NCBI GenBank assembly: GCA_043819555.1
Contig: JBDREQ010000039.1
Location: 37,828 to 101,827 of the forward strand
Origin: Candidatus Zixiibacteriota bacterium
GTDB taxonomy: Bacteria > Zixibacteria > MSB-5A5 > GN15 > JAAZOE01
Reading direction: 5' to 3'
Length of the DNA stretch: 64,000 bases
The notes under the pieces: generated by a model
The model's database searches: none
What the model saw: the letters and a program-made list of their open reading frames with translations, nothing else
Told to the model about the DNA's origin: nothing
Shown here: piece after piece, positions 26,559 to 43,040 of the stretch
Position numbering within the stretch: the stretch's first letter is position 1
How the letters are laid out: each line of letters starts with the position of its first letter
Position numbers and translations under genes: made by a program

Positions 26559-27302
26559 TCAAATAAACTTTTCACGATTTTGGAGTTTTAAAAGCCCCAT
26601 CAGTGTCATCAATATTGAGCCTGCCACCAAATAAATGCGGTTATAGAGGGTAAGATCGGACTGTAAAATCCCCGCAAAGTCCTCAGTAGATTCGAATGGA
26701 TTATAAAAGATATCCCATTTATTGGCGCTCTGATCTTCTGTTATGATATTGTAGATTAACAGAAAAATCACAAGGATAGCCGCTGTACCATTTCCGTTTC
26801 GTACAAAAGTCGACACCATAAACCCAAAACTGCCAACAAAAAGAAGAGGAAACATAATATGATAAATCATTGACCATAGACTAAAATCTGCCAAGGCCAA
26901 TTGACAGAAAATTGCGTAAAGCAATAATATACTTGCGGTTACGATATATTGAGTAACGCATCTGGCCAGCCAAACCTTATATCGATAATCCGGAATTCCA
27001 AAAAGTGTTTCAATCATACGAGAATCGGTATCCCGCTGAATGGTGTACGTGGCCGGATAAAAAATCAGGAGAAGTCCCGGAGAATATAAGAAATAGTAAA
27101 TATCCTGTGCTGTTGGAGGAGTGTTTTCCTCAATCGTGTAGATGATGACTATGGTCAGGAACAAGGCCAGCGACAGGAATAAAAAATATTTGAATTTGCC
27201 GGCAAAGACATGATTGGCGTTATATCTGAAAAGGGAAATAATAAGCCTTAGTGTATCCAAAATTCTGGTACCGGTCAGATGTCTTTCTCGAGCATTCGTC
27301 AT
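26559..27302 (-). CDS. ABC-2-type permease-like membrane protein (last gene of the RND-ABC operon)
   Basis: About 6 TMs; IQRDTDSRMIETLFGIP resembles the ABC-2 coupling helix; ATG overlaps the upstream TAA. Confidence 0.7.
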   Translation of the reverse strand: MTNARERHLTGTRILDTLRLIISLFRYNANHVFAGKFKYFLFLSLALFLTIVIIYTIEENTPPTAQDIYYFLYSPGLLLIFYPATYTIQRDTDSRMIETLFGIPDYRYKVWLARCVTQYIVTASILLLYAIFCQLALADFSLWSMIYHIMFPLLFVGSFGFMVSTFVRNGNGTAAILVIFLLIYNIITEDQSANKWDIFYNPFESTEDFAGILQSDLTLYNRIYLVAGSILMTLMGLLKLQNREKFI

Positions 27303-30300
27303 TAATTCTCCTTGCCTCCGAGAAGCCATAAATATGAATCTTCCAGCGTCGGCGTCACTTGAACAGCGTTGGGGGTCGGCATAGTTTCCGCCAAAACGCG
27401 AATCCTAATATTATCACCCTCACGTGTATGATGAACAATACGTGCAGCGTTTCGCATTTTTTCAAATTCCGCGTCAGTAACATGCGCCTGCCAGACAAAT
27501 CCCTCAGTAAGAGCGACCATATCCCGGGGAGTTCCAATAAATTTGACTTTGCCGTCTCCCAAAACCGCTAATTTGTTGCAGGAACTTGAAACATCTTCGA
27601 TTATATGGGTTGAGAATATTACAATCCGATCCCGTGACAATTCCGACAAGAGATTTCTAAACCGGATTCGCTCACGCGGATCGAGGCCGGCCGTAGGTTC
27701 ATCGACAACCAATATTCGGGGCAAATGCAACAGAGTTTGAGCAATCCCGACGCGTTGTTTCATGCCACCGGAAAAGGCCTGGATTTTGGTGTTTTTGCTA
27801 TCTCCCAAATGCACTGAGTTAATCGCTCGTTCGACTATTTCGCGGCGTTCCTCATTATCCAGTAATCCTTTTAGAATGGCCTGGTAATCAAGGAATTGAT
27901 AAGCCGTCATAGTTTCATAGGTACCAAATTCCTGGGGCAAATATCCTATCAAGGCCTGCAATTCTTCCCGTTTTTCGTCGATATCGATATCGTTTATAGT
28001 CACTTTCCCAAAGCTATTTGAGAGTATGCCGCATACAATTCGCATCAAAGTTGTTTTTCCGGCTCCGTTGGGTCCGACCAAACCAAACATGCCGCTGCCA
28101 ATTTCCATGGAAACCTGATTGAGGGCCAAAAATGGAGTTTTCTTCTTGCCGATAATTGGAATTAATTTGACAAAACGATAAAATATTTTTCTGGTTTTTT
28201 TAAAACGACCCGTTATCCGATTTATGTTAATTCTATCCCGATAGAGTCTTCGCGAAGTGTGATAAATTAAAATGCCCAAATACCACAATACACCGATAAT
28301 TATTGCAGTAGCATTTTCGTTCGTTTCGATAAAAAGCCAAAGAGTATTAATCAAAGGCCCAAACCAGAATATAACAATAAAACCCAATTTCCGCAGAAGT
28401 CTCATTCTAATTTTGGAATTATCATCCGGAATCAACAAAGGCCGCGTCAGATAAACTGCATAAGCATAAAAAACGATCGAAAAAATAGTTTCCCAAAAAC
28501 CGCTTTCGAGATATAAATAAGTAAAATAAAAAAGAAAAATTACGAATGGCATTTGCCAGATTAGACTAATAATGCCGGCCGGTTCGGGCAATTCGCCGCG
28601 AAACCGTTTTCTTTCCCGAAAGCGTTTACCACCCCGCCATTCCTGCATAAAACGCGAGTAATTGCCGTATAATTTGACGACATTCCTGATTGAGATTTTT
28701 ATCGGCACATCGCCGGGAATCAATTTTGCGCTGCTTCGACGGAGCGACGTTTTGATAAAATAGGTCATACCCGGGACAACAATAATGATGACGCAAAGAT
28801 CAATCGCCCGCCATAGGAAGGAATCTATATAAGTGTATATTGCCACAAATCCAGCTATCGCTGCCGCAACCTGAGCTACCTGCAAATACCATTTTAAACC
28901 GCGTAACCATCTGACCACGTTTTCGAGACCAAATGCGACCGTAGGGATAAAAATTAATGTAAACAGCGTGCCAGCGACAAGACCCCCGATAACGGTAATT
29001 GCAAATGGCGCGCCAATCTTGGCGACATATTCCGCCTTGCCCATCGCCAGCGGAAACATGGCCAGAATGGTCGTAATGGCGGTGATCAAAATTGGGCGAA
29101 CTCTGGCCTGACCAGCCATTAATAACGCCCGGCTGGGAGTATATTCACGGCGCCTTAACAGGCGATAATAATCCATTAAAATAATGCCGTTATTAACCAC
29201 TACTCCCAGCAGGATTAAAAACCCGGTTAAAACATTGGCGTCATACACTGAGTTATTGGTCAGGATCAAACCCCAAAAGGCACCGATTGTCGCCAGAGGC
29301 AAAGTAAACATCATAACCAGAGGAGTTAAAAGCGATTCGAAAATTGATGCCAGAATCATATAGATCAAAATTATGCCGGTAAATATAAGAAAATAAAAAT
29401 CGGACAGATCCGTCTCTTCGTGAACCGCTTCGACCGCGACGCCAGGAGGAAGATTTATGGCCGCGACTATCTGATCAATTTCCGCGCGGGCGCCGTCTAA
29501 TAACTGTTTTGAGTCTTCAATTTCTTCTTCAAAACGGTAAATGACTTCAACTATTTTTTCCTGGTTAGTGCGATTGATACTTGAATATCCATTATTATAA
29601 ACGATACCGGCAAGCTGAGTCAGGGGGATGTTCCCTCCCGAATTACTCGGTACAACCACTTGACGTAAATCATCCGAGGTTTTATCAATCTCCTCTTCAT
29701 CTGAGCTTTTGAGGATTATACTGACCTCTTCGGTTCCCTGCCGTAACGTCGCGCCGGAAGAAAATTCCCCTTGGAAACCGGCCAGTTCAGACATAATAGA
29801 AGTCGTTCTAACATCAAAATGGCTTAGAGCGGATTTATCAAACATTAGGTCAATACCAGGCTGGCCTTGAGATACTGACAAATTCGCTCGCTGAACGGTG
29901 GAAAGGTTTTCAATATTAAACAAAATATCGTCGGCAATGCTTGTCAATAGGGCCATATCCTGGCCCTTTACGACCACTCGCTCTTCGCTTGAGCCAATTC
30001 CCAGCAACCGCTCAAAGGCTCGTCCGGCTCCTCCCATACCGCCGGCTCCGCCGCCTCCGCGATAGCGAGCGTTAGATACGGGCTGCTCATATGAGAAATT
30101 AATGCGGCCATAAGCCCCTCCAAGCTTCTCCAATATATCAGCCTTGATCGCACTCAAATCACGATCACCAATATCTTTGTAATCTTCGACTAATTGAAAA
30201 GTAATGGTCGAAACCTCTTCTTCAATATTGGCTCGCCGCTCCTCCACTTCCGGAATCTCTGACAAGCGCGCATCCATATCCAGTATTTGTTCATCCGACG

Positions 30301-32014
30301 ATTCCAAAGTTGTTCCAGCCGGCATCGATGCATAGAGGGTAAATTCATCAAGTTCGACCTCGGAAGGAATATTAATGCTCAGGGCGAGACATATAATAAC
30401 GCTTAGAAAAAATACCGTCGTTCCGATTAAGATAGTCCGAGCTGGAAAACGCAAACATGATTTTAATAACAGAGTGTAGATTTGCATCTGCCGATTAGCC
30501 AGCGACATTCTTGTGAATATGGATTTTTGTGTTTCCCTTTTATTTTTCAGGATACGATAAGTAAATGACGGAATAAGCAAAAAGGCGACCGCCAGGGACA
30601 CTAAAAGAGTCGAAATAATCGACACCCCGACATGCTTCCCGATCGTACGAATCAGGAAATTATCAGAAAATATAAATGGCAGAAAAATGCAAACCGTAGT
30701 CAATGTCGCGGCAGTCACCGCACGCAAAACCTCCTTGGTTCCGATTAACACCGAATCAAATGCTGATTTACCATGAGCGGCATGACGATAGATATTTTCC
30801 ATGACAACGATGCTATTGTCAAGAAGCATTCCAAGGGCGATAGCCAGACCGACCAGAGTTAGAGTATTTATGGATATGTTGAAAGCATAGAAAAAATTCA
30901 TCGCGATCATTACCGAAATGGGAATGGCAAGTGCCACTACTAATACCAGGGGAACATTTCGAAGAAATATCCATAATACGACAATGGCCAGGATGCCGCC
31001 AACGAGGGCCAGCAATTTAATTATCTCGATGTTTTGTTCTATAGGTTCGGCCGCATCGATCTGAATCGCCAATATAATTCCGTCAGATTTCAGGCGGTCA
31101 TTTAATAGTTCGATAACATCGCGGGTTTCTCGTGAAAGACTAAGCAGATTGGTCTGCTGGTCACGAACGAGAGTGATGGAAATCGCTTCCATTCCATTAA
31201 TGCGCGAGATTGATTCTTCTTCCGCGCCGCCATCAATAATCGTACCCAGATGTTTTAGTAAAACAGGGCCCTGTTCTTTGATAATCAGGTTTTCGAGATT
31301 ATTAATCGAATTATAATCGGCATCAAGATTTACATAGAATTCTCGATTGCCTTCAACTACCTGCCCCAAATATTGACGCCCGGATGAGCCCTCCGAAATT
31401 TTTGATGAAATTTGAGAAGCGGTAAGATTATGAGAGCGCAACGCGTTTTCATCGAGGCGTATCTCGATTGAACGTTTTCTTCCGCCATAGACTTCTATAT
31501 TGGCAATGCCGTCAATCTGCTCAAATTCAGTGATAACTTTACTATCAACAATTTCCCGGATTTGATCAAGACTGCCTTCCCCCCGTGCCTGAAGGGTCAT
31601 GAACATATTAGCCAATTGCTCGGTATCGACTTTCCAAACCCGGGCAAAGAAACCGGCCGGCAGTGCGCCTGAAGCGGATTCAACTCTCTCCTGCAATTTC
31701 AGATAGGCGTATTTGTAATTGGTATCTTCGGTATAATAGACAATAATCGTCGCCCGTGAACGATCTATGTACGATTCAATTTTCTCAATATCCGCCAGTC
31801 CGGCAATGGCGTTTTCAAGAGGAATAACGGCTTGCTGCTCGAGATAATGCGGATCGGCATCTCGGGCGCCGCCAACCTGGACGATTAGCATGGGAAGTTC
31901 GGCAAAAGGAATAAGTTCAACCGGCAGGCGATTATATGAGATAACGCCTAAGAGGCAAAACCCGATTATTAACATTGCCGTGAAGACCGGCCGCTTTATA
32001 ATAAATGCGATCAT
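27302..32014 (-). CDS. AcrB-family RND permease fused to a C-terminal ABC ATPase
   Basis: About 1030 aa RND (GMLLDNSIVVMEN, RVRPILIT), extra TMs, then NBD with GPNGAGKTT, YLPQ, FSGGMKQR, LVVDEPT, STH; one uninterrupted 1570-aa ORF. Confidence 0.93.
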   Translation of the reverse strand: MIAFIIKRPVFTAMLIIGFCLLGVISYNRLPVELIPFAELPMLIVQVGGARDADPHYLEQQAVIPLENAIAGLADIEKIESYIDRSRATIIVYYTEDTNYKYAYLKLQERVESASGALPAGFFARVWKVDTEQLANMFMTLQARGEGSLDQIREIVDSKVITEFEQIDGIANIEVYGGRKRSIEIRLDENALRSHNLTASQISSKISEGSSGRQYLGQVVEGNREFYVNLDADYNSINNLENLIIKEQGPVLLKHLGTIIDGGAEEESISRINGMEAISITLVRDQQTNLLSLSRETRDVIELLNDRLKSDGIILAIQIDAAEPIEQNIEIIKLLALVGGILAIVVLWIFLRNVPLVLVVALAIPISVMIAMNFFYAFNISINTLTLVGLAIALGMLLDNSIVVMENIYRHAAHGKSAFDSVLIGTKEVLRAVTAATLTTVCIFLPFIFSDNFLIRTIGKHVGVSIISTLLVSLAVAFLLIPSFTYRILKNKRETQKSIFTRMSLANRQMQIYTLLLKSCLRFPARTILIGTTVFFLSVIICLALSINIPSEVELDEFTLYASMPAGTTLESSDEQILDMDARLSEIPEVEERRANIEEEVSTITFQLVEDYKDIGDRDLSAIKADILEKLGGAYGRINFSYEQPVSNARYRGGGGAGGMGGAGRAFERLLGIGSSEERVVVKGQDMALLTSIADDILFNIENLSTVQRANLSVSQGQPGIDLMFDKSALSHFDVRTTSIMSELAGFQGEFSSGATLRQGTEEVSIILKSSDEEEIDKTSDDLRQVVVPSNSGGNIPLTQLAGIVYNNGYSSINRTNQEKIVEVIYRFEEEIEDSKQLLDGARAEIDQIVAAINLPPGVAVEAVHEETDLSDFYFLIFTGIILIYMILASIFESLLTPLVMMFTLPLATIGAFWGLILTNNSVYDANVLTGFLILLGVVVNNGIILMDYYRLLRRREYTPSRALLMAGQARVRPILITAITTILAMFPLAMGKAEYVAKIGAPFAITVIGGLVAGTLFTLIFIPTVAFGLENVVRWLRGLKWYLQVAQVAAAIAGFVAIYTYIDSFLWRAIDLCVIIIVVPGMTYFIKTSLRRSSAKLIPGDVPIKISIRNVVKLYGNYSRFMQEWRGGKRFRERKRFRGELPEPAGIISLIWQMPFVIFLFYFTYLYLESGFWETIFSIVFYAYAVYLTRPLLIPDDNSKIRMRLLRKLGFIVIFWFGPLINTLWLFIETNENATAIIIGVLWYLGILIYHTSRRLYRDRININRITGRFKKTRKIFYRFVKLIPIIGKKKTPFLALNQVSMEIGSGMFGLVGPNGAGKTTLMRIVCGILSNSFGKVTINDIDIDEKREELQALIGYLPQEFGTYETMTAYQFLDYQAILKGLLDNEERREIVERAINSVHLGDSKNTKIQAFSGGMKQRVGIAQTLLHLPRILVVDEPTAGLDPRERIRFRNLLSELSRDRIVIFSTHIIEDVSSSCNKLAVLGDGKVKFIGTPRDMVALTEGFVWQAHVTDAEFEKMRNAARIVHHTREGDNIRIRVLAETMPTPNAVQVTPTLEDSYLWLLGGKEN

Positions 32015-35000
32015 GTTGCCTTGTGCTCGGACTTCAGGTCTATGGTCGAAACTTTTCCGGCCAGCATATAATAGACCGCAGGTATTACGATCAGGGTCAA
32101 AGCGGTCGAAGTGAACAGTCCGCCAATAACGGCGATGGCCATCGGCGCCCGGAGCGATGCCCCTTCGCCAATACCGATCGTCAATGGCAATAGAGCAAGA
32201 ATTGTAGTAATACTGGTCATTATAATCGGCCGAATTCGAGTCTGCCCGGCGTTTGTAATGGCGGGAATGAGTTCCAATCCGCTGCGGCGGTTTTGATTGA
32301 TGCGATCTATTAAAATGATTGAGTCGTTGACGGCGATTCCGGCCAGCATGATTATCCCGATAAATGACATGACATTAAACGGCATATTAAGAATAAATAG
32401 AATGAATACCGCCCCGACTCCGGCCAGAGGAATCGTCAACAGTATAACAAAGGGATGAAGAAGCGATTCGAATTGAGATGCCATCACCATATAAACCAAA
32501 ATAATCGCAAGAAGAAGCGCAAATTTCAAATTTCCAAAAGCTTCCTGGCGCAATTGCTCTTCACCGGTCACAGCAATCGAATATTCCGGCGGGAGCGCAA
32601 TCGTGTTGAGCGATTCTTTTACTTTGACCGCGATTCTATCGAATGATATATCATTGGTGATATGCGCCGTTATACGGGCGATTCTGATTTGATTATTCCT
32701 GATAATTTCACGCGGGGAATAAGTCTGCTCAATATAGGCAATTTCATCAACGCGAACCCGGCGTCCTGAAGAAGTCTCCAAAAGCAAACCCTCAAGTTCT
32801 GAAAGGGTAATATCCGCGCGCAAAAGCTTAATATCCGTATATTCGCCCTGGTGATTTATCTGTCCGGCATCCCGCCCGCTGAGAGCGTCCTTCAGTTGCG
32901 AACCAATCGACTGGGGAGTAAGTCCAAATTCTGATGCCATTGTTCTATTTATCCGAAGATTTATCTCAGGGCGGCCTTCCTGAAAACTGGTTTCAACATT
33001 TTTAAGCTCAGAGATGGCCATAACTCTTTGCTGAACCGTGTCGGCCAGTTGTTCCAAAAGATCCAAATCCTGCCCCTTAATCTCAATGACAATCGGCTCC
33101 GATTCTGTACCGAGTGTTGAACGCAGAGCGGTTTGTTCTACAATTAAACGGGCCTCAATATCCGGCAATCCAGCCAAAATTTGATTAATACCCTCGATAA
33201 TTTTCTCTGATGAATTGGCTGCCTCCGGATTCAGAAGAATATGTATTATGGCATTATTTTCATCGGCCAAAGCATCAATTTCGAGATTGCCCGCTCCCCC
33301 GGGACCGACTCGGGAATAGATGTGGTTGATATTGTTTTTAAATTGTTCCTTCAGAATATTCTCAATATTTCTAACGGCGCCTTCGGTCCTCTCCAAGCTG
33401 GTTCCTTCAGGCAGGGCGAGATTAATCGAAAGTTCACCCTGGTTGGCATGAGGCATAAACTCACTGCCTGTGATAGGAATCAAAATGACAGCAATAATAA
33501 CCAGAACAAATCCGCCAGCAATGATTCGCACCCGCCGGGCAATAATTTTTTCCAGTAATCTGCCGTATCCCGGAAAAGTAATTGTATGTTTTACTGTATA
33601 AGTCTGCCGTTTTTTCAGAAGCCGCGAGCATAACATCGGAATAACCGCCAGAGCAACAAACAAAGACGATATAAGAGAATAGGCCACCGTCCAGGCCTGC
33701 TCCCGGAATAACTCTCCGGCAGCTCCATGCAAATATACAATCGGCAAAAAGACAATAATGGTTGTCAACGTCGAGCTTGTTATGGCGCCGCCAACTTCTC
33801 CAGCCCCATATATAGCCGCATCCTTTAACGATTTGCCATCCTCAAGATGCCTGAAAATATTTTCAACGACAACGATGGCGTTATCGACCAACATCCCCGC
33901 CCCAAGCGCAAGCCCTCCCAAGGTCATGATATTCAGCGAGAGATCATTGAAGTACATCAAATTGAAAGTCGCCACGATCGAAATGGGAATCGCAAAGCTG
34001 ATAACGGCGGTGATACCGATTCTTCTCAGGAAAACATAAAGAATAATGATGGCCAGTATAATTCCAATAATTCCGGTCTGCTCAACTTCGGTAACAGCCG
34101 CGCGAATAAAATGAGCCTGGTCCTGAATGATGGTTAATTCGTACCCCGGCAAAGCTGTACTGAGTTCCGCCAGTCGATCCAAAGCTGCCGCCGCGGCATC
34201 AATCGTGTTATAACGAGCCTCTTTGTAAACTTCAAGCGCCAGACATTTTTGCCCATTCAATCGCACAATGTTTTCAGGCTCATCAAGGCCAAATTCAATC
34301 GATGCCACCTCGCGCAAATAAATCGGTACCCGGTCGGCAGTATTTGCGGCTTGAGTACCCTCGGGAGATTTATAGGCGACAATTAAATTCTCAATATCGT
34401 CCTTATCATAGAACTCGCCGACGCCTCGGATAATATATCTTTTGCCCATTTCGACAATCGATCCCCCGGTCATATTGCGATTGGATGACATGATTTGCCC
34501 GGCCAGAAGATCAAGCGTAATTCCGTAGGCCTCAAGTGTGTAGGCATCAGTTTTGATTTCGACCGCGCGGCGTCTGCCGCCGATGATGTCAACTTCGGCC
34601 ACACCGGGAAGACGAATCAACTCGTTGGAAATATTATTTTCCGCCGTTTGCCTTAGTTTGTCCAAGTCTTTGAATTCGGGATGAGAAAAGATGGCCGTGA
34701 CAATCGGAACGGCATTGGGGTCATGCTGACTGACCGAAATTTCATCAACGTCCGAGGCTTGAGAATAATCGGCAACGGCCTTCTGTAAATCCAGAAAAGC
34801 CTCATCCATATCGGCATCCCAGGCGTATTCGATAGTAATTAACGCCCGTCCGACGCGGGATATTGAGGATACGTTTTGAACTTTGCGTCCGCGGGCGGCG
34901 ACCGCCTCAAGCTGAGATACGAATTGATCCTCAATTTCCTCGGGGGGCCTCTCCCCGGCGCTGATTTCCATGAATAGGCGGGGGCTGTTCAAATCGGGTA

Positions 35001-35112
35001 GTAAATCGACCCCGAGCCGGGTAAAAGAAATATACCCCAAAAGCAGGACAGCCAGAACCACCATCAAAATGGTCGTCGGATATTGAACTGAAAAACGTGC
35101 AAGTTTATACAT
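32011..35112 (-). CDS. AcrB/AcrD/AcrF-family RND permease
   Basis: GMLVDNAIVVVEN, RIRPIIMT, 12-TM layout, 1033 aa. Confidence 0.95.
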   Translation of the reverse strand: MYKLARFSVQYPTTILMVVLAVLLLGYISFTRLGVDLLPDLNSPRLFMEISAGERPPEEIEDQFVSQLEAVAARGRKVQNVSSISRVGRALITIEYAWDADMDEAFLDLQKAVADYSQASDVDEISVSQHDPNAVPIVTAIFSHPEFKDLDKLRQTAENNISNELIRLPGVAEVDIIGGRRRAVEIKTDAYTLEAYGITLDLLAGQIMSSNRNMTGGSIVEMGKRYIIRGVGEFYDKDDIENLIVAYKSPEGTQAANTADRVPIYLREVASIEFGLDEPENIVRLNGQKCLALEVYKEARYNTIDAAAAALDRLAELSTALPGYELTIIQDQAHFIRAAVTEVEQTGIIGIILAIIILYVFLRRIGITAVISFAIPISIVATFNLMYFNDLSLNIMTLGGLALGAGMLVDNAIVVVENIFRHLEDGKSLKDAAIYGAGEVGGAITSSTLTTIIVFLPIVYLHGAAGELFREQAWTVAYSLISSLFVALAVIPMLCSRLLKKRQTYTVKHTITFPGYGRLLEKIIARRVRIIAGGFVLVIIAVILIPITGSEFMPHANQGELSINLALPEGTSLERTEGAVRNIENILKEQFKNNINHIYSRVGPGGAGNLEIDALADENNAIIHILLNPEAANSSEKIIEGINQILAGLPDIEARLIVEQTALRSTLGTESEPIVIEIKGQDLDLLEQLADTVQQRVMAISELKNVETSFQEGRPEINLRINRTMASEFGLTPQSIGSQLKDALSGRDAGQINHQGEYTDIKLLRADITLSELEGLLLETSSGRRVRVDEIAYIEQTYSPREIIRNNQIRIARITAHITNDISFDRIAVKVKESLNTIALPPEYSIAVTGEEQLRQEAFGNLKFALLLAIILVYMVMASQFESLLHPFVILLTIPLAGVGAVFILFILNMPFNVMSFIGIIMLAGIAVNDSIILIDRINQNRRSGLELIPAITNAGQTRIRPIIMTSITTILALLPLTIGIGEGASLRAPMAIAVIGGLFTSTALTLIVIPAVYYMLAGKVSTIDLKSEHKAT

Positions 35113-35130
35113 TATTTGTGCGCCTGCAAT

Positions 35131-36189
35131 TTATTTAGTGATTTTTACCCGAGAACGATTACGCAAGGTTTCAAATCCCTCAACGACTAATCGATCTTTT
35201 TCTTTTAATCCATTTAATACTTCTATCTCTTCCCGATTGGACAGTCCCGTTTCCAAACGGCGTTCATTAGCAATTGATTTTTCGATAACATAAACAGTTT
35301 TGGATCCTCGCCGTTCAATGATAACATTTTTGGGTATAACCAGCGTCGAATCTCGTTCTCTAACTATTATATTGGCCTGAACGAACATCCCCGGCCGCAA
35401 AGTCAAATTCTTATTATCAATCTCAAGCAGGGCCTTAAACATTCTGCTGGTCGGATCCAGAACCGGTGAAACCTGCGTTACAACGCCGTAAGCGGTGTCT
35501 TCATCGCTGGCATAACTCGTTACTATGACTTTTTGATCTGGCATTACCGCACTCAATTCCTTGCTGGGTAATGTCACGTCCGCATAGAGTTTTGAATAAT
35601 CCATAATCTTCCCAAGAACGTTACCGGCGGTAACTAATGTGAACGGGCTGTAATAAGGCAAATCGACAATTAGTCCATCAAAAGCAGCCATTACATTCAT
35701 TTTTTGCAATTGAATTTTCGCGTTTTCGTAAGAGTATTCCGCATTAATATAGTTGCGTTCGGCGTTGGTTAATTCGGTTAAGGTTACACCGCCTTTATCA
35801 TATAAACTCTTTTGCTTATCGAAATCGCGTTTGGAAATCTCAAAATTTAGTTTCTGACCCTCAATTGCGATTTGGTTCTCCAATTCAGGATTGATCAATC
35901 TTATAATGGTATCGTACTGCTCAACATGATCGCCCATTGCAAATAACTTGCCCGTGCGAAGATTCTTTTGCAGGACATAGGCTCCTTGCTGAAGAGTCGT
36001 CAACTCTGCTTCGCTGACGGCCTTGACGGTTCCGGTCGCATAGGCGAATTCCTGAATCTTCCCGAATTTCACATCCTCAACCCTGACAGGAACCTGAGAT
36101 TCCACATCGATTTCCGGGCCCTCCGGTTCGCATCCGATAATCATGAGTATTAAAGCCGGGGCCAATGAGTATTTTAATATTCGTTTCAC
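35131..36189 (-). CDS. RND periplasmic adaptor (membrane fusion protein), lipoprotein
   Basis: Lipobox LMIIGC, alpha-hairpin, AAFDG, LRPGMFV, GLKEKDRLV. Confidence 0.92.
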   Translation of the reverse strand: MKRILKYSLAPALILMIIGCEPEGPEIDVESQVPVRVEDVKFGKIQEFAYATGTVKAVSEAELTTLQQGAYVLQKNLRTGKLFAMGDHVEQYDTIIRLINPELENQIAIEGQKLNFEISKRDFDKQKSLYDKGGVTLTELTNAERNYINAEYSYENAKIQLQKMNVMAAFDGLIVDLPYYSPFTLVTAGNVLGKIMDYSKLYADVTLPSKELSAVMPDQKVIVTSYASDEDTAYGVVTQVSPVLDPTSRMFKALLEIDNKNLTLRPGMFVQANIIVRERDSTLVIPKNVIIERRGSKTVYVIEKSIANERRLETGLSNREEIEVLNGLKEKDRLVVEGFETLRNRSRVKITK

Positions 36190-36199
36190 ATCTATTCTC

Positions 36200-37702
36200 C
36201 TATTGCAAAGCTATAACTGCCTGATTCCTGGAAAAATCCCACAGCGACCTGATTTTTAAATCCAATAAGGCTACTTGATAATTTATCAGGGCCGAGATTT
36301 CATTGAGCTGTTCTCGTGATAATTGGGTTTGATAGAATTCTATATCTTTGGAAGATAAATCTCCGTTACGATACCTTTCGAGATTTATCTCGTATGTCCG
36401 CCGCGCGTTTATCACATTCTTTTCGGCGATTTCGATTTGCGTTTTTTGGTTTAAGAGATTGCGGCAGGCCTGGCGGATCTGATATTTAACCTGCTTTTGT
36501 TCCTCATCGGCCGATATCCGCTCCTGTTCAACCCGTTTCCGGGACGATTCAATCTGATGCTTCTTCTTGCCCCAGTCAAATAAAGGAATATTAAGCTTTA
36601 TCTCTACCATTTGATTGCGAGTCGGCGATCGATAAATATCTCCGAATAGACTATCAGTGCCGACGATGCCATAGGTCAAATCCACACTGGCCAAAAATTC
36701 ATTTTCCGAACCGGCTCGAATCAAATCATCCAAAGCATATTGAATATCAATATCCCTCTGGCGCAATTCCATACGATTCTGGAGGCCATGGTTCATAGCC
36801 TGCATTAGATTAATATCAACCACGTTCTTTTCCACATTGGTCACAACCTGCAAATCGTCATCAAGAGACAACCCCAGAAGAATCTTGAAATTATCGAGAG
36901 AATTCTCAAATTGTATTTGGCTGTTTTCGAGCGAAGCCCGGCTATTAGCCTGAGTCAAATCAGCCTGAAATAATTCTTCCTCAGCCGATATACCCGCTTC
37001 TACTTTGCTTCTGATTATTTCATAGCTTTCGGTCGCATTGGCCAATTCTTCTTTAGATATTTCAACGCTTCTCTGCCTGAAATAAAGACTTAGAAATTCC
37101 TGCGTGACCTGGCGCTCAATCTGCAGACGTTGGATAGCGAAGTTCAATTGCGCGTTTTCCAGCGCCAACTCGAGTTCTTTAATCCGCATTTGTGTGCGAT
37201 TGTAGGTAAATAAAGGCTGGTTAAGACTTAAATAAAGCGAATTCCTATACGATTTGTCTTTTTCTGTGCCGACTAATGAACTTGACGATTCCCGCCAGTC
37301 GAAATCCTCTACGATTCGCAAAGTACCATCGGTCCATTTGATTGGTTGCAGGATTGAAAGGCTGGCCGCAGAACTGGTCTGTTCTATGGTATAGTATTCT
37401 GAAAAGCGATCATCAAAAACTCTGTCTTTTGAAAATCTAAAAGGAGTCACAGTTAAATTAAACTGGGATTTCAATGAAGCCTGCTGCGCCCATAGATTTC
37501 TCTCGCTCATCTCCAGATTCAAACGGGTATTTCGAATCGTGGGGCTGTTGGTCATAGCCATATCCAGAGCCTGCTCCAAAGTCATATCAATCGCCGCCAC
37601 CGGGCTGGATAATCCCAATTGAGATAAGATTGCTATCAGGAGAATAACCGTAATTTGATTAATCTTTTTGACAGAAATCCATGTTATCACTCTTTTCATC
37701 AT
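36200..37702 (-). CDS. TolC-family outer membrane efflux protein
   Basis: MTLEQALDMAM..NSP, LNQPLF, LNIPLFDWG, ERYRNG repeats. Confidence 0.92.
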   Translation of the reverse strand: MMKRVITWISVKKINQITVILLIAILSQLGLSSPVAAIDMTLEQALDMAMTNSPTIRNTRLNLEMSERNLWAQQASLKSQFNLTVTPFRFSKDRVFDDRFSEYYTIEQTSSAASLSILQPIKWTDGTLRIVEDFDWRESSSSLVGTEKDKSYRNSLYLSLNQPLFTYNRTQMRIKELELALENAQLNFAIQRLQIERQVTQEFLSLYFRQRSVEISKEELANATESYEIIRSKVEAGISAEEELFQADLTQANSRASLENSQIQFENSLDNFKILLGLSLDDDLQVVTNVEKNVVDINLMQAMNHGLQNRMELRQRDIDIQYALDDLIRAGSENEFLASVDLTYGIVGTDSLFGDIYRSPTRNQMVEIKLNIPLFDWGKKKHQIESSRKRVEQERISADEEQKQVKYQIRQACRNLLNQKTQIEIAEKNVINARRTYEINLERYRNGDLSSKDIEFYQTQLSREQLNEISALINYQVALLDLKIRSLWDFSRNQAVIALQ

Positions 37703-37740
37703 TTATTCTCCCATAACCTTCTTAAGGCGATATACTCAAA

Positions 37741-40700
37741 TTAGCGCTTGACCCATTTGATCGCGTCGGCGGTAACAACCTGAGTCCGGTTTTTATCGGT
37801 CATCTCAATTTTATTGGAACCGCTTGGCAGGCGAAATGTCCCCAAATAATTCCAGCCTTCTTCGGCGTCATCAAGGTCAAGAAGGATTTCCTCGACACCA
37901 TCCTCATGATATACAAAAAACTGCTTCTCGCCCATGTCCTGATTTCTATTCCCGCCCCGGTGTCTCCACCAGTTCTCATAGCTTTCATCCTCAAAATAAA
38001 AATAGACATCAAAATCACCGGATGCTTCCAGATTAATTTCCCAGGCAATTTTATTTTCTCCGGTGCCGGATTTCTTGTGCATGGCTGACTTAATGAATTT
38101 GCCGTGAAATTTCTGTCCTGTCGTCGGGAGCCAGACACCCGGCGCATCCCAGGAACGTATCCCGACATAGGGATCTTCAATCTCGCCAATGTCAAAATAT
38201 TCGCGTAGATTTCGCCTCAGCCAGTTTTCTGGAATAATACCTATAATAGTAAAGCCGGGGTCCTCGTTATCAACAAGATATTCTCCAGACGAATCATTTT
38301 TATTATCCGCGAAAGCCGCTAAGGAATCCATTTCAACCGGAGTTTCTTTGCGTCGCATCTGTTGATCTCGAAATTGATGGTTTAAAATTGCCGGAATATT
38401 CTGGGAAACATAAGTATCAATAGTCATTGAAGACGGGGGCTGGTCGATAATAAATCCAATCTCGCGCCGCTTTTGAGCTGGGACATAGTACATTTTTGAA
38501 TAATCGTATTGTTGCTGCATTCTCTCCCACCGGGGACCAAAATTCGCTTCCTGGCGCTGATAGCGCAGACTAATCTTTATCAGACCATCAACATCAGTAG
38601 GATTTGTAACCTTAAATTTCACCTGTGTTTTGGTTCGTTCATCATGAATGATATTATAGCTTTCTATATCTTCAAAAATATAACCGGCTAGAGCCGTATC
38701 TCCGTACCAGACATCTATATCGGATGCAAATTCCGGGCTTCCAACTCTCGAAGCGAAGGCCAATATTGTCGAATCTGTGATATTTTGAAAGCTGTTGGTC
38801 TTAATGAAATCGTTTATCTCGCCTGTAAATTCTTCGTTTCCCGATCTGGCTTCAAGAATAGAAATAAGGCTTAATCCTTTCGATTTTACAGCGGCCTGCA
38901 CCGTTTCGTCCTTTACCGCTGAAGTATTAATAATTTCCTTTAAGGGAAATTGCTTCAACGCCAGATTGGCTCGTTCCTGTTCCGTGAGGCCAGCGTCAAA
39001 CCACATCGAAATTTGTGGAGGAGGTTTTATGCGGCTTTCAAAATAAGACTCGAAGGCATAATTTAAAAACGGCCAATTTTCAGAATTAATATTCGTGACA
39101 TATGAAACAAAATTGGGCAGAATCTTGAAACGTATTTCGACATTCTCATGCCGAGTCAAACCCCGCATATCTTCATTGAACCCCATAAGATCAATTTTGG
39201 CAAAATAGCCTAAATAGGTGGCTTGAAGAACTTTGGGATCCTCCAATTGATTAGCCCGTTCCTGCGACCAGTTAGAGCTTCTCTCAAATCTCCTGAAATC
39301 ACATCCGGAATTGGCGGTACCCATTTCAGTTAAATACACAATTTGAGGTTGAACCGTTTCCTGAGCTATTGTCCAGTAGCGGTTATATGCATAAAATTGA
39401 ATCGGAGCTTCGACTAAACTGAATTTGTCATAGGGATATTCCAGTCCAAGGTTTACTTCATACTCATTTTTTAAATCAATTATGACCGTCCCAATAGTGT
39501 CACCCAACTCATTAAAATATTCTAAATAATAATCGTGGCCGGGGAATGTATATAAAGAATATTCTACATCCTCCGCGGTGAGGAAATGACGTTCATATTC
39601 TCCGATCGTTAACGACATTTGGGGAAGAAATTTCTCAGGAGCAAACGAGTATTCGATTTGACCGTTTTTCTCTATAGTTGAGACTTTCCCCTGAGAGATG
39701 GCTGTCAATCCGGGAGGAGCCGAGACGGTTAGACTAAATTTAGTAAATTCTCGGGCGGGCGAGTCAGGAAAGGCCGTTCCCGGCTGTAGCCCAGCATTGG
39801 GATACCATCCGCTTTCCGGAGTCAAATGCAGATACCTATCGGCCACGAAGGAATAGATTTTGGGAATTCGAAATATCCACAGGCTGTATTCGGATTCAAG
39901 TTTGTCATTGGGCAAATCGAGATAACAATAACGATCATCAATCGACCCCGAATACTCTATTATCATTGAAAGAGTATCGTTCATGGCGACAGGATTTTGA
40001 GGTTTAATCCAGATTAAAAACCTGTTCTGTGAAAACTCAATCACTTCTCCGGAAATTGATATTGAAGAAACTTTCAATCCCGGGTTTAGCGAAAATAACA
40101 ATGAATCAAGGCTGGATTCATTATTATTGACAACGCTCAAAGTTGAACGTCCCGATAAAACGCCGCCCTGCCAATCAATTTCAAGAGAATTTTCCAGAAT
40201 ATTAACGGTCGGTGTATTGGGAGCGCTTTGGGCCAGTGATTTCAGGTCTTGTCGGTAATCCCTATCCTGATAATTTGAATTCAGGTATGTCATCCCAAGT
40301 AAAACAGATGAGACTAAACAGACAATCGAAATCACGGAAGCGGCAACATTGGCAACTCTCGATTGTTTTAATCTTTTGGTCGTAAATACTGAAATGAAAA
40401 ACATCCCCAAACCGAGAATGAAATAGGCCCCTCTCAGCAGAAAAACATCGGACCAGTTGCCCAGGCCGACAAAGCCCGAGAATATAAGAGGCTGATATAA
40501 CATATAGGCATCAAAAATGAAATAAAAATGCCGTCCCAGATAAATCAGTGATAATAAAGAAAATCCAAGCATGGCAACAAAGACAACGGCCTGGCTGCGA
40601 AACAGCGTTACCAGTAAAACCGATCCCCCGATTACAAACGTCAGAGTCGGCAAACTTACCAAAAGAGGAAACCATAAATAAGGTTCCCATGCAAATGCTG

Positions 40701-41115
40701 AGGGCGATAAAAAGGCATCGAATATCAAAGTCATAAGAATCAGAACCGCATTCAGAGCGAGGAAAACGCCCAGTATACCCAGAAACTTCCCAAGGAGATA
40801 ATCGATATTTGAAAACGAGCGGGTAAAAATGACTTGCGACGTATCATGATTTTTGTCGCGCTTTAAAAACTCGGTTGCCATAAAGGCCGCGATTATACCC
40901 TGATATATATTGAGCATTTTCAGATTGGCCAATAAAAGAGAACCGCCCAGGGCACGCATGTAGTGAGGCGCCCCGCCGATTTTGGTGCCCATTCCCATGC
41001 ACATCCCAAATAATATGGCAATGCCCAAAATGGAAAAGATTCGGAATGCCCATGACCGTAACAGGAGCTTGGCTTCATACCAGGCGACACTTTTTATGGC
41101 ATAGAGATTCAGCAT
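37741..41115 (-). CDS. ABC-2 permease fused to an M1-aminopeptidase-like periplasmic region (no HExxH) and a golvesin/CBM-like C-terminal domain
   Basis: About 7 TMs with EFLKRDK...YLLGK; M1-like LFSLNPGLKV, ESGWYP, GLEYPY..FSLVEAP; C-terminal VDNEDPGF...GWNYLGTF...ADAIKW. Confidence 0.75.
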   Translation of the reverse strand: MLNLYAIKSVAWYEAKLLLRSWAFRIFSILGIAILFGMCMGMGTKIGGAPHYMRALGGSLLLANLKMLNIYQGIIAAFMATEFLKRDKNHDTSQVIFTRSFSNIDYLLGKFLGILGVFLALNAVLILMTLIFDAFLSPSAFAWEPYLWFPLLVSLPTLTFVIGGSVLLVTLFRSQAVVFVAMLGFSLLSLIYLGRHFYFIFDAYMLYQPLIFSGFVGLGNWSDVFLLRGAYFILGLGMFFISVFTTKRLKQSRVANVAASVISIVCLVSSVLLGMTYLNSNYQDRDYRQDLKSLAQSAPNTPTVNILENSLEIDWQGGVLSGRSTLSVVNNNESSLDSLLFSLNPGLKVSSISISGEVIEFSQNRFLIWIKPQNPVAMNDTLSMIIEYSGSIDDRYCYLDLPNDKLESEYSLWIFRIPKIYSFVADRYLHLTPESGWYPNAGLQPGTAFPDSPAREFTKFSLTVSAPPGLTAISQGKVSTIEKNGQIEYSFAPEKFLPQMSLTIGEYERHFLTAEDVEYSLYTFPGHDYYLEYFNELGDTIGTVIIDLKNEYEVNLGLEYPYDKFSLVEAPIQFYAYNRYWTIAQETVQPQIVYLTEMGTANSGCDFRRFERSSNWSQERANQLEDPKVLQATYLGYFAKIDLMGFNEDMRGLTRHENVEIRFKILPNFVSYVTNINSENWPFLNYAFESYFESRIKPPPQISMWFDAGLTEQERANLALKQFPLKEIINTSAVKDETVQAAVKSKGLSLISILEARSGNEEFTGEINDFIKTNSFQNITDSTILAFASRVGSPEFASDIDVWYGDTALAGYIFEDIESYNIIHDERTKTQVKFKVTNPTDVDGLIKISLRYQRQEANFGPRWERMQQQYDYSKMYYVPAQKRREIGFIIDQPPSSMTIDTYVSQNIPAILNHQFRDQQMRRKETPVEMDSLAAFADNKNDSSGEYLVDNEDPGFTIIGIIPENWLRRNLREYFDIGEIEDPYVGIRSWDAPGVWLPTTGQKFHGKFIKSAMHKKSGTGENKIAWEINLEASGDFDVYFYFEDESYENWWRHRGGNRNQDMGEKQFFVYHEDGVEEILLDLDDAEEGWNYLGTFRLPSGSNKIEMTDKNRTQVVTADAIKWVKR

Positions 41116-41130
41116 GCAATTGTTCTCCGA

Positions 41131-42042
41131 TTACCAGCCATTATCCGAAGCTTCCAGATCCATTTCAAATCCGCTGGTTTGCATGAAATAAATATAAGCA
41201 TCTTCAAGATTGGGCTCAAGTGGCTCGGCATCTTTCCCCGTTACTTCTTCCGCAACCAAACGAAGCTCATAACCGTGCTCAGCCGGCATAGCAGAAATGA
41301 CGGGGTATTTTTCCTTAAACCTGTCAATTTCCCCGCCATCGACATACACCCGCCAGACTTTTCCTTTAGTCTTATTTATCAATCCATCCGGAGAGCCATT
41401 ATAGATTATTCTCCCCGAGCTAAGAAGAGCCATATCATGGCATGTGGATGATATATCCCCGACTATATGAGTTGATAAGACAATAATTATATCCCGGGTG
41501 GCCAAATCAGCCATCAAATTTCGAAATCTCAGCCGTTCCTGAGGGTCAAGGCCGACGGTCGGTTCATCGACGATTAAAATCTGCGGATCGCCAATAAGGG
41601 TTTGGGCAATTCCCAATCGTCTTTTCATCCCGCCTGACAACTTGTTTGCGTTGCGGTCGCGGACATCAAAGAGGCCGACCTCATCCAGCAGTTTATCGAC
41701 TTTTTCAAGGCGTTTTTTCTTATCTTTCACGCCGCTCATTTGGGCGGCATAATCAAGAAATTCCCATACTGCAGTTTTGGCAAAGGTACTGAAGCCCTGA
41801 GGCAAATAGCCAATCAAACGGCGAATTTCACGGCGTTGTTTCTGTAAATCCATATCATTTATTTTAATCTGGCCCTGAGTCGGTTTTAGAAGCGTAACCA
41901 GGATACTCATTAAAGTCGTTTTGCCGGCTCCATTGGGGCCCAGAAGTCCGAATAAACCATTCTCAATTGTCAAGCCAACGTCGCGAAGAGCCAATTTGCC
42001 GCCGGGGTATTGTTTGGTAAGGTTATTTATTCGTATTTCCAT
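41131..42042 (-). CDS. ABC transporter ATP-binding protein (DrrA/CcmA-like), first gene of the RND-ABC operon
   Basis: GPNGAGKTT, LSGGMKRR, IVDEPT, STH. Confidence 0.95.
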   Translation of the reverse strand: MEIRINNLTKQYPGGKLALRDVGLTIENGLFGLLGPNGAGKTTLMSILVTLLKPTQGQIKINDMDLQKQRREIRRLIGYLPQGFSTFAKTAVWEFLDYAAQMSGVKDKKKRLEKVDKLLDEVGLFDVRDRNANKLSGGMKRRLGIAQTLIGDPQILIVDEPTVGLDPQERLRFRNLMADLATRDIIIVLSTHIVGDISSTCHDMALLSSGRIIYNGSPDGLINKTKGKVWRVYVDGGEIDRFKEKYPVISAMPAEHGYELRLVAEEVTGKDAEPLEPNLEDAYIYFMQTSGFEMDLEASDNGW

Positions 42043-42341: not shown

Positions 42342-43040
42342 TTAATCACTCACAATTAAGCGAAATCCTTTACCGTGAATTCCCCTTATTTCAATCCTGG
42401 GATCACCTTTGAGGTATTTTCGTAATTTTGATATAAACACGTCCATACTGCGACCGCTGAAGTAATTTTCGCTGCCCCAGATTTTCTTCAAAGCTTCATT
42501 TCGATCAAGGGTTTTATTGAGATTAATGCAGAGCAGTCGTAATAAATCGGCTTCCTTGGGCGTTAGTTTTCTTTCATTATTATCATTGACTAACAAGCTC
42601 CGATTATAATCGAATGTAAAAATGCCGATTTTAAAATTAACTTGTAAATTGTCACTTTCGTTCTGTGCGTTAACTCGTTTTAAAATCGCTCGAATTCGTA
42701 AGAGCAATTCTTCAATACTGAACGGTTTTGTTATATAATCGTCGCATCCTATTCCAAATCCCCTTATTTTATCCTCGGTCAGCGATTTGGCTGTTAGAAA
42801 AATAAGGGGGATGTCTTGATCCATGTCGCGAACTTTGCGAGCGAATGTAAACCCATCCATTTTGGGCATCATTACGTCAACCAAACATAGATCATAAGAG
42901 TTATTTGAAAAAAGGTCCCAGCCTTCCGAGCCATTTACGCATAGGATAACTCCAAAACCCTGCATTTGCAGATGTTCCCTGAGTATTAACCCAAAATTGG
43001 CATCATCTTCCAGAAGAAGAATTTCAGTTTTCTGATTCAT
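42342..43040 (-). CDS. OmpR/PhoB-family response regulator (RprY-like)
   Basis: LLEDD, DVMMP, DDYITKPF, winged helix RSMDVFISKLRK...HGKGF. Confidence 0.95.
   Translation of the reverse strand: MNQKTEILLLEDDANFGLILREHLQMQGFGVILCVNGSEGWDLFSNNSYDLCLVDVMMPKMDGFTFARKVRDMDQDIPLIFLTAKSLTEDKIRGFGIGCDDYITKPFSIEELLLRIRAILKRVNAQNESDNLQVNFKIGIFTFDYNRSLLVNDNNERKLTPKEADLLRLLCINLNKTLDRNEALKKIWGSENYFSGRSMDVFISKLRKYLKGDPRIEIRGIHGKGFRLIVSD

Follow-up and report, generated by a model that had tools for sequence, protein, structure and literature searches.

A conserved seven-gene cassette carries an RND permease fused to an ABC ATPase

Permeases of the resistance-nodulation-division (RND) type, driven by ion gradients, and ATP-binding cassette (ABC) transporters, driven by ATP, are taught as alternative engines of tripartite efflux, and export in two steps through separate pumps has long been inferred. 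Among described systems, MdtB2C1 is a published heterotrimer stoichiometry (PMC7015380), and both MmpL7 (an RND protein) and DrrABC (an ABC transporter) have been implicated in exporting one mycobacterial lipid, phthiocerol dimycocerosate (PDIM) (PMC11539658). Here we analyse a window of 64,000 nucleotides from a Candidatus Zixiibacteriota bacterium (contig JBDREQ010000039.1, positions 37,828 to 101,827 of the forward strand, assembly GCA_043819555.1), in which a seven-gene cassette merges two known kinds of system, an RND tripartite pump and an ABC-2 exporter, and welds the RND and ABC engines into one protein. The weld is kept, together with its partner genes, in carriers whose source labels include Zixibacteria, KSB1, Gemmatimonadota, Latescibacterota and Bacteroidota, among others.

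We found no description of an RND-ABC fusion in the full-text literature searched, with TCDB and subscription journals outside the scope of that search; this agrees with an earlier note on the same DNA, made from the sequence alone, which knew of no characterised example. In the part of a tripartite-pump review that the analysis covered, the passages on fused, chimeric or heterotrimeric pumps and on MdtBC contain no such fusion (PMC8277102). One literature match, 'fused to an RND' in a PSP preprint, proved to be a Snf7-RND fusion.

A fused RND-ABC protein conserved with its partner genes

The cassette consists of seven co-oriented open reading frames (ORFs) running head to tail on the minus strand from 42042 to 26559 (Table 1), all of them where the earlier note had placed a set of coupled genes. 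In order, they encode a free ABC ATPase (ABC1), a permease with large periplasmic domains (PermBig), a TolC-family channel, a periplasmic adaptor (membrane fusion protein, MFP), an unfused RND permease (RND1), a second RND permease fused to an ABC ATPase domain (RND2) and a small permease (PermSmall). Intergenic gaps are 10-38 bp, the RND1 stop and RND2 start overlap as ATGA, and the RND2 stop overlaps the likely PermSmall start as TAATG, with AAGGAG just 5' of it. The fusion itself is a 1570-aa ORF on which a Pfam domain scan places ACR_tran and ABC_tran on a single chain, with no stop between them, confirming what had been read from the letters alone.

Relatives were sought with fusion residues 1030-1570 among long proteins, yielding at least 120 clusters. 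Among the matches listed, ACR_tran (PF00873) and ABC_tran (PF00005) were both present in 120/120 clusters; 113 of these measured 1522-1621 aa and the other seven 931-1188 aa, two of the short ones being labelled partial at source and several lying on short contigs. The best database relative comes from Zixibacteria (88% identity), and the labels of the relatives listed also include KSB1, Gemmatimonadota and Gaoshiqia, among others. A one-genome-per-species scan recovered 32 loci with the fused form, its carriers including Prolixibacter bellariivorans ATCC BAA-1284, Draconibacterium mangrovi, Marivirga sericea DSM 4125, M. tractuosa (complete genome), Parabacteroides massiliensis, Bacteroides sp. 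224 and Latescibacterota. Full-length fusions are found in isolates and on complete chromosomes, including those of cultured Bacteroidota. Within the window's own phylum, the linker region joining the RND and ABC parts was present in 12/151 genomes (10/88 genera), once per genome; in the other genomes of this set the frame was open over 1572-1596 aa in 10/11 and over 475 aa in the eleventh. Annotation pipelines name the fusions generically, as 'efflux RND transporter permease subunit' or 'AcrB/ABC-type ... ATPase subunit'.

The long ORF might have been a chimera created in assembly, or two genes read through as one, and the source assembly of the window does consist of 79 contigs. Against this stand the same fusion in all 120 listed clusters from independent sources, its presence in isolates (the P. 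bellariivorans and M. sericea strains named above), on complete chromosomes and in 12 genomes of its own phylum, and the conservation of the junction region itself. This conservation refutes an artefact, to which we give a negligible probability.

When 1.84 billion representative proteins were searched with a profile built from the linker, 153 matches emerged. Every match of about 1550-1590 aa has the linker at residues ~1023-1294, and the others are shorter, mostly small fragments; judged by these sequences, the linker is confined to this RND-ABC fusion family and absent from other protein families. Since fusion and linker recur across independent sources, the fusion junction is under selection. 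Proteins shorter than 863 aa, searched for split forms, were mostly fragments on short contigs or partial records, with a few matches on long contigs (P0145, P0159, P0187, P0214). A Firmicute match that seemed to reach into the linker (L053) was rejected as an ordinary ATPase preceded by another ORF.

Gene order was counted in loci fetched with 10-kb flanks, 28 of which have a flank reaching upstream of the fusion. It is conserved in these other genomes: RND1 and the MFP gene lie directly upstream of the fusion in 28/28, and TolC lies upstream of the MFP in 26/28. PermBig and ABC1 are present wherever the flank reaches (ABC1 was seen in 21 loci), and PermSmall stands directly 3' of the fusion in every locus with downstream sequence. 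At the two exceptions for TolC, L010 and L029 (3460-6966, Latescibacterota), the search thresholds applied revealed no TolC gene between PermBig and the MFP; the channel gene there may have diverged, lie elsewhere or be missing. In the complete genome of Marivirga tractuosa ac6 (L020, 1855-5182 and 7915-11065), tblastn recovers PermBig and RND1 in two pieces each; the genes may be frameshifted or pseudogenes, or the sequence may contain errors.

A histidine kinase and an OmpR-type response regulator are encoded directly upstream of ABC1, on the same strand and 300 bp away. Bce-type ABC transporters report to two-component systems, and the ABC unit of the cassette could in a similar way report flux or envelope damage to this kinase and regulator, with the RND pump as the effector. 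A regulator-kinase pair also adjoins the cassette in L001 and L010; yet these are the only two such cases among the fetched loci, a search for conserved downstream genes found none common to more than three loci, and both ATPase domains and both permeases look like working transporter parts. We therefore consider a sensing device very improbable. The two-component system may regulate the cassette, although it does not belong to its conserved gene set.

The remaining features of the locus concern gene boundaries and the flanking DNA. The longest PermSmall ORF begins 27 bp inside RND2. The true start is more likely M10 at 27302, giving 247 aa, because the ESM Atlas record begins at M10 and because the TAATG overlap has AAGGAG upstream. 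For the channel, NCBIfam gives type_I_sec_TolC with E 4.7e-24, below cut-off; for the adaptor it gives RND_mfp (TIGR01730) with 173.4 bits, above the cut-off of 94.9. An ornithine/diaminopimelate-decarboxylase-like gene (Pfam) lies downstream of the cassette. Neither promoter nor terminator scans were informative; terminator-like sites numbered 18, where 17.9 would be expected.

Table 1 Positions in the window of the cassette genes, of the parts of the fusion and of the upstream two-component genes
Feature	Position	Strand	Basis
ABC1, free ABC ATPase, 303 aa	41131..42042	-	Pfam ABC_tran 20-162, E 2.9e-32
PermBig, 1124 aa	37741..41115	-	AlphaFold2 model, Foldseek, family-level Pfam; own Pfam pass Golvesin_C only
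TolC-family outer-membrane factor, 500 aa	36200..37702	-	Pfam OEP E 1e-45, two stretches
MFP periplasmic adaptor, 352 aa, sole adaptor of the cassette	35131..36189	-	Pfam HlyD_D23, HlyD_3
RND1, complete unfused RND permease, 1033 aa	32011..35112	-	ACR_tran 5-1017, E 2.9e-224
RND2 core, aa 1-1030 of the 1570-aa fusion	28925..32014	-	ACR_tran 1-1025, E 6.5e-157
Two extra transmembrane helices after RND TM12, aa ~1042-1095	28730..28897	-	AlphaFold2 helices
Predicted detached first beta-strand of the fused ATPase domain (NBD2), with A-loop Tyr, aa 1105-1118	28661..28702	-	AlphaFold2 strand, structural alignment
Predicted ~175-aa insertion in NBD2, aa ~1119-1294	28133..28660	-	AlphaFold2 helices
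NBD2 remainder, aa 1295-1570, including stop codon	27302..28132	-	ABC_tran 1298-1442, E 1.1e-27
PermSmall, six-TM ABC-2-like permease, 256 aa from first ATG	26559..27329	-	predicted complex, structural neighbours
Histidine kinase	43044-44759	-	Pfam
OmpR-type response regulator	42342-43040	-	Pfam

The two ATPases and the domain organisation of the fusion

The nucleotide-binding domains (NBDs) of ABC1 and of the fusion (NBD2) are closely related and have intact motifs, as had been claimed for them: the Walker A, signature and Walker B strings quoted in the earlier note are all present in the sequence, and ABC1 and NBD2 share 42% identity over 271 aa. No other protein encoded in the 3.35-Mb genome is as close a paralogue of NBD2 as ABC1 (E 2.3e-72 vs 3.6e-38 for the next). 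Walker A, Q-loop, signature, Walker B with its catalytic Glu and the H-loop of NBD2 are invariant in 31/31 sequences, and the motifs of ABC1 are kept in every relative whose locus covers them. The tail of NBD2 beyond the H-loop forms a C-terminal domain. In NCBIfam, ABC1 scores best with drrA (190 bits, cut-off 312) and GldA (183 bits, cut-off 403), and NBD2 reaches 156 bits with drrA and 166 bits with GldA, all four values being below the cut-offs.

To describe the region between the RND core and the ATPase, we used an AlphaFold2 (AF2) model of fusion residues 1030-1570 built from an alignment of 31 sequences, with a predicted local distance difference test (pLDDT) of 79.6 and a predicted template modelling score (pTM) of 0.63. 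In this model the chain passes through two helices (1042-1062 and 1066-1095; 13-33 and 37-66 in model numbering), a strand (1107-1116; 78-87 in model numbering), a basic helix, four long helices (1146-1259) and a further basic helix before it enters the NBD sheet at 1295. The first two are extra transmembrane (TM) helices, which bring the chain back to the cytoplasm after TM12 of the RND core, and W1036, W1068, P1081 and S1090 are conserved around them. The insertion behind the strand, with helices at model residues 92-109, 117-139, 143-165, 173-201, 205-230 and 243-255, is made up of four TM helices flanked by two basic stalk helices, and its Lys/Arg-rich loops lie on the cytoplasmic side. 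Because the helix counts, as read from the sequence, are even (2 + 4), all parts of NBD2 would be cytoplasmic.

The stretch at fusion residues 1105-1118 (IKISIRNVVKLYGN) parallels the N-terminus of ABC1 (IRINNLTKQYPG), and K1114 and Y1116 in the detached strand (K85 and Y87 in model numbering) are invariant. Solved NBDs, from their own residue 1-3, align to model residue 74-78. Only 212-219 residues align to whole solved NBDs over a model span of ~390 residues, with MJ0796 (1l2t) at Z 26.8, a root-mean-square deviation (rmsd) of 2.0 and 219 aligned, FtsE (8hd0) at Z 26.9, rmsd 1.8 and 212 aligned, and the MacB NBD (5lj6) at Z 26.6. According to the model, NBD2 is split: between its first strand, which carries the adenine-stacking Tyr, and Walker A lie ~175 aa with four membrane helices. 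The fusion of RND2 to an ABC ATPase thus stands as first described, except that the NBD does not simply begin at ~1298, its first strand being placed at 1107-1116. An ABC ATPase fold would here tolerate four membrane helices within its first hairpin.

The permeases and the RND paralogues

The AF2 model of PermBig has pLDDT 80.1 and pTM 0.77. Residues 1-296 form an N-terminal interface helix and seven TM helices, an ABC-2-type membrane domain, and because the TM helices are seven, the remaining 830 residues are periplasmic. These hold an M1-aminopeptidase-like domain (aa ~305-810), a beta-sandwich (813-960) and a Golvesin_C domain resembling a carbohydrate-binding module (CBM; 990-1124). Foldseek matched the model to IRAP, ERAP1, PepN, tricorn factor F3 and the lanthipeptide peptidase EryP, with E 4.5e-17 to 1e-15, probability 1.00, ~650 columns and 11-14% identity; in the PermBig family, Peptidase_M1 is found in 17/21 members and Golvesin_C in 21/21.

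The signature of M1 zinc aminopeptidases consists of the zinc site HEXXH-(18)-E and the exopeptidase motif GXMEN. Neither H[ED]xxH nor GxMEN occurs in any of the 21 PermBig members (0/21), whose alignment contains no invariant or nearly invariant His. On the evidence of its residues, the M1-like domain is a pseudo-peptidase that has lost its zinc site, a point not made in the earlier note; the Golvesin_C segment is probably a glycan-binding (CBM-like) module. A locus of Aquimarina algiphila (L039, 9950-16744) encodes an ABC ATPase followed by a 1211-aa Peptidase_M1 protein (E 8e-16) with an intact HEMAH and then by an S9 prolyl oligopeptidase. As HEMAH and a downstream Glu are kept, this M1 protein is perhaps an active peptidase. 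Comparison of the sequences suggests that the pseudo-peptidase of the cassette had as its ancestor an active M1 enzyme anchored in the membrane.

The M1-like and ABC-2-like labels that the earlier note had given to the permeases hold at the level of family and fold, and not for the window's own proteins taken singly, which stay below the Pfam thresholds (PermBig: Peptidase_M1 E 0.0067, ABC2_membrane_2 E 0.054; PermSmall: ABC2_membrane_2 E 0.0012). In the PermBig family, ABC2_membrane_2 matches 14/21 members, with a best E of 2.1e-9. The ESM Atlas model of PermSmall has clusters of ABC-2 permeases as its structural neighbours (TM-score 0.67-0.72, ~220 residues).

A predicted complex of the fusion tail with PermSmall reached an interaction prediction score from aligned errors (ipSAE) of 0.69, against 0.00 for the best control; this mark is reached by 116/157 solved complexes and by 2/215 mismatched pairs. 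Contact agreement among three runs was at least 83%, and partner pLDDT at least 76. The contacts run from the Q-loop and helical subdomain of NBD2 (aa 1325-1387, plus 1116-1117) to PermSmall aa 25-43 and 103-119, which are the N-terminal helix and the loop after TM2, and the contacting segments of PermSmall contain the invariant residues Y36, N37, E107, F110, G111, I112, P113, Y115, Y117 and K118. PermSmall is thus predicted to dock on NBD2 by the canonical ABC-2 coupling interface. As both NBDs are intact and both membrane subunits are of the ABC-2 type, the ABC part resembles a full heterodimeric ABC-2 transporter. A heterodimeric ABC unit tethered to an RND channel had been proposed in the earlier note; the NBDs, the ABC-2 subunits and the predicted docking of PermSmall on NBD2 are in line with it, while we infer the pairing of ABC1 with PermBig.

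Both RND proteins match ACR_tran (PF00873) over their full length, RND1 with 747 bits and RND2 with 524 bits (cut-off 28), and MdtB (9lyq) is the closest solved structure for RND1 (E 2.9e-105) as well as for RND2. An MFP gene with two tandem RND paralogues is the MdtBC/MuxBC gene arrangement, and it is present in 28/28 upstream-covered loci. NCBIfam MdtB (cut-off 1584) gives 417 for RND1 and 256 for RND2, and MdtC (cut-off 1774) gives 395 and 271; on these scores RND1 weakly leans towards MdtB and RND2 towards MdtC. In the periplasmic half of RND2 there is a conserved glycine-rich stretch, RYRGGGGAGGMGGAGRAFERLLGIGS, at residues ~648-676 of the fusion (~29987-30070 in the window, minus strand). 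R669, G672, G674 and G684 are invariant in 14 full-length relatives, and most solved RND structures stop aligning ahead of this stretch.

In HAE-1 pumps, the proton relay comprises D407 and D408 (TM4), K940 (TM10) and R971 (TM11) in AcrB numbering. Read off the MdtB alignment, the corresponding motifs are 'VDNAIVV' (TM4), 'AVNDSII' (TM10) and 'RIRP' (TM11) in RND1, and 'LDNSIVV', 'VVNNGII' and 'RVRP' in RND2. All 27 RND1 and all 29 RND2 sequences retain the TM4 Asp as well as R-x-R-P in TM11. The second TM4 Asp of AcrB is replaced by Asn in 26/27 RND1 and 26/29 RND2, and the TM10 Lys is absent from all 56 sequences, its position being occupied by Asn in 26/27 RND1 (one Ser) and 29/29 RND2; the TM10 pair reads N-N in 29/29 RND2 and N-D in 11, N-N in 15 and S-N in 1 of the 27 RND1. 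The invariance of the TM4 Asp and the TM11 Arg argues that ion coupling is probably still in use, through a non-canonical relay. The genome holds four other RND genes (C9:117401-120430, C20:131963-135013, C20:1881-5444 and C31:85159-88206), whose TM4/TM10 patterns are DD/KN, DA/QN, DM/DD and DD/ND, one of them the canonical DD/K; as these four show four patterns, the relay residues are very variable within this organism.

Such a relay raises the prospect of an RND pump that is driven or gated by ATP, the ATP cycle of the two NBDs being passed via the six extra TM helices into RND2. ATP would then replace a weakened proton relay or gate the pump, and the ABC-2 subunits would serve mainly as a stator. 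A covalent and conserved link, with a family-specific TM insertion inside the NBD that is found in no other protein, would suit this arrangement, as would the lack of D408 and K940 equivalents in both paralogues of an organism that has a canonical DD/K RND elsewhere in its genome. Nevertheless, neither paralogue varies at the TM4 Asp or the TM11 Arg, other RNDs of the genome also deviate from DD/K, and every cassette contains a complete second transporter with two permeases. Moreover, the coupling groove of NBD2 is predicted to be filled by its own permease, PermSmall, which argues against the ATPase driving the RND part directly. We regard an ATP-driven or ATP-gated RND pump as decidedly unlikely.

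Proposed mechanism and comparison with known systems

We tentatively favour, at slightly less than an even chance, an arrangement in which an RND pump like MdtB2C has a single heterodimeric ABC-2 exporter tethered to it, so that export would proceed in two stages with a periplasmic hand-over. ABC1 with the membrane domain of PermBig, and NBD2 with PermSmall, would form a heterodimeric ABC-2 (type V-like) exporter that, using ATP at two intact sites, would move a cytoplasmic or inner-leaflet substrate, probably an amphiphilic molecule bearing a glycan or peptide, to the periplasmic side. There, the zinc-less M1-like cradle and the CBM-like domain of PermBig may hold the substrate until RND1 and RND2, with one MFP and TolC, would take it from the periplasm and expel it across the outer membrane, a step that would use ion-gradient energy via the conserved TM4 Asp and TM11 Arg. 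The link between NBD2 and RND2, made of two TM helices and the four-TM insertion, would pin the ABC unit to the flank of the pump.

An RND trimer of the form RND1(2)RND2(1), as in MdtB2C, would give exactly one fused NBD per trimer. If the trimer is indeed 2:1, one fused NBD and one free ABC1 would reconcile the three-fold pump with the two-fold ABC unit, and the cassette would show how an ABC dimer may be fitted to an RND trimer. The same stoichiometry would explain why only one RND paralogue is fused, as it would supply a single NBD2 to pair with ABC1.

Several observations weigh against this two-stage arrangement. For the pump, the second TM4 Asp and the TM10 Lys are lacking, so ion coupling of RND1 and RND2 is only assumed, and the paralogues, which fall far short of the MdtB and MdtC cut-offs, are hardly told apart by these scores. 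For the exporter, an ABC2_membrane family match was found in only 4/26 PermSmall members (best E 4.9e-6), PermSmall of the window reaches no Pfam threshold, and a profile-profile comparison of PermBig with PermSmall was not significant (probability 0.4%, E 0.16). What the score of the predicted complex captures may be a resemblance to ABC-2 NBD-permease complexes of known structure, and not this specific pair. In addition, no biosynthetic or substrate-related gene is conserved beside the cassette in the fetched loci, and its patchy presence (12/151 genomes of the phylum) points to an accessory role. Finally, no confident contact was predicted between PermSmall and the six extra TM helices.

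The last point bears equally on whether exporter and pump work independently, the fusion merely securing co-expression, co-localisation and stoichiometry, with neither hand-over nor allostery. Each module is complete by its own terms, and relatives of the ABC1-PermBig pair stand free without an RND, as at L039, both of which would be expected of simple co-assembly. On the other hand, the gene order is fixed across several phyla, with tolC between the ABC and RND genes; full-length proteins have the linker nowhere but behind an RND core; and the linker sequence is itself conserved, with W, P, K and Y positions that never vary. The fixed order and the conserved linker suggest selection on more than co-expression, and we consider independent operation unlikely.

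The opposite extreme would be a single dual-energy machine, in which ATP turnover by the ABC-2 unit and ion flow through the RND pump are mechanically linked via the six extra TM helices, so that extraction from the inner membrane and expulsion through TolC form one coupled cycle. This is doubtful; if true, it would be the first known transporter with primary and secondary energisation in one polypeptide assembly. Under the two-stage arrangement that we favour, the cassette offers a natural test of direct substrate hand-over from an inner-membrane exporter to an RND pump, and the cultured carriers (Prolixibacter bellariivorans, Draconibacterium mangrovi and Marivirga species) make the system experimentally reachable.

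Compared with known systems, the RND part of the cassette can be set beside MdtABC-TolC and MuxABC-OpmB, with which it shares the order MFP, RND-B, RND-C, translational coupling, a single adaptor and a TolC-family channel. It differs from them in that RND2 bears six extra TM helices and an ABC ATPase, in that tolC and a complete ABC-2 transporter belong to the cassette, and in a TM4 D-N without a TM10 Lys. The mycobacterial MmpL7/DrrABC/LppX system resembles it in the use of an RND protein and a DrrA-type ABC transporter on one lipid, drrA being the best NCBIfam match of ABC1 (190 vs a cut-off of 312). The mycobacterial parts, however, are separate and work in an envelope without an MFP-TolC duct, whereas those of the cassette are covalently joined, and no lipid-synthesis genes lie near the cassette.

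As in MacAB-TolC and type 1 secretion, a single operon combines an ABC ATPase and a membrane subunit whose periplasmic domain is large with one MFP and TolC. MacB, an ABC transporter of type VII, has four TM helices and touches the adaptor directly, whereas the permeases of the cassette are ABC-2-like, with six and seven TM helices, its adaptor is of the RND_mfp family, and its ABC unit is separated from TolC by the RND pump. Free-standing pairs of an ABC ATPase and a permease/M1 protein in Flavobacteriia, to our knowledge uncharacterised, resemble the ABC part: at L039 an ABC1-like ATPase (40-46% identity) is likewise followed by a Peptidase_M1 protein of ~1200 aa, which, unlike PermBig, keeps HEMAH and has no RND, MFP, TolC or second NBD beside it. 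As for the split ATPase, NBD1 of CFTR has a regulatory insertion of ~30 disordered, soluble residues between its first strands; the segment predicted in NBD2 likewise interrupts the first beta-hairpin, but would span ~175 residues and cross the membrane as four helices.

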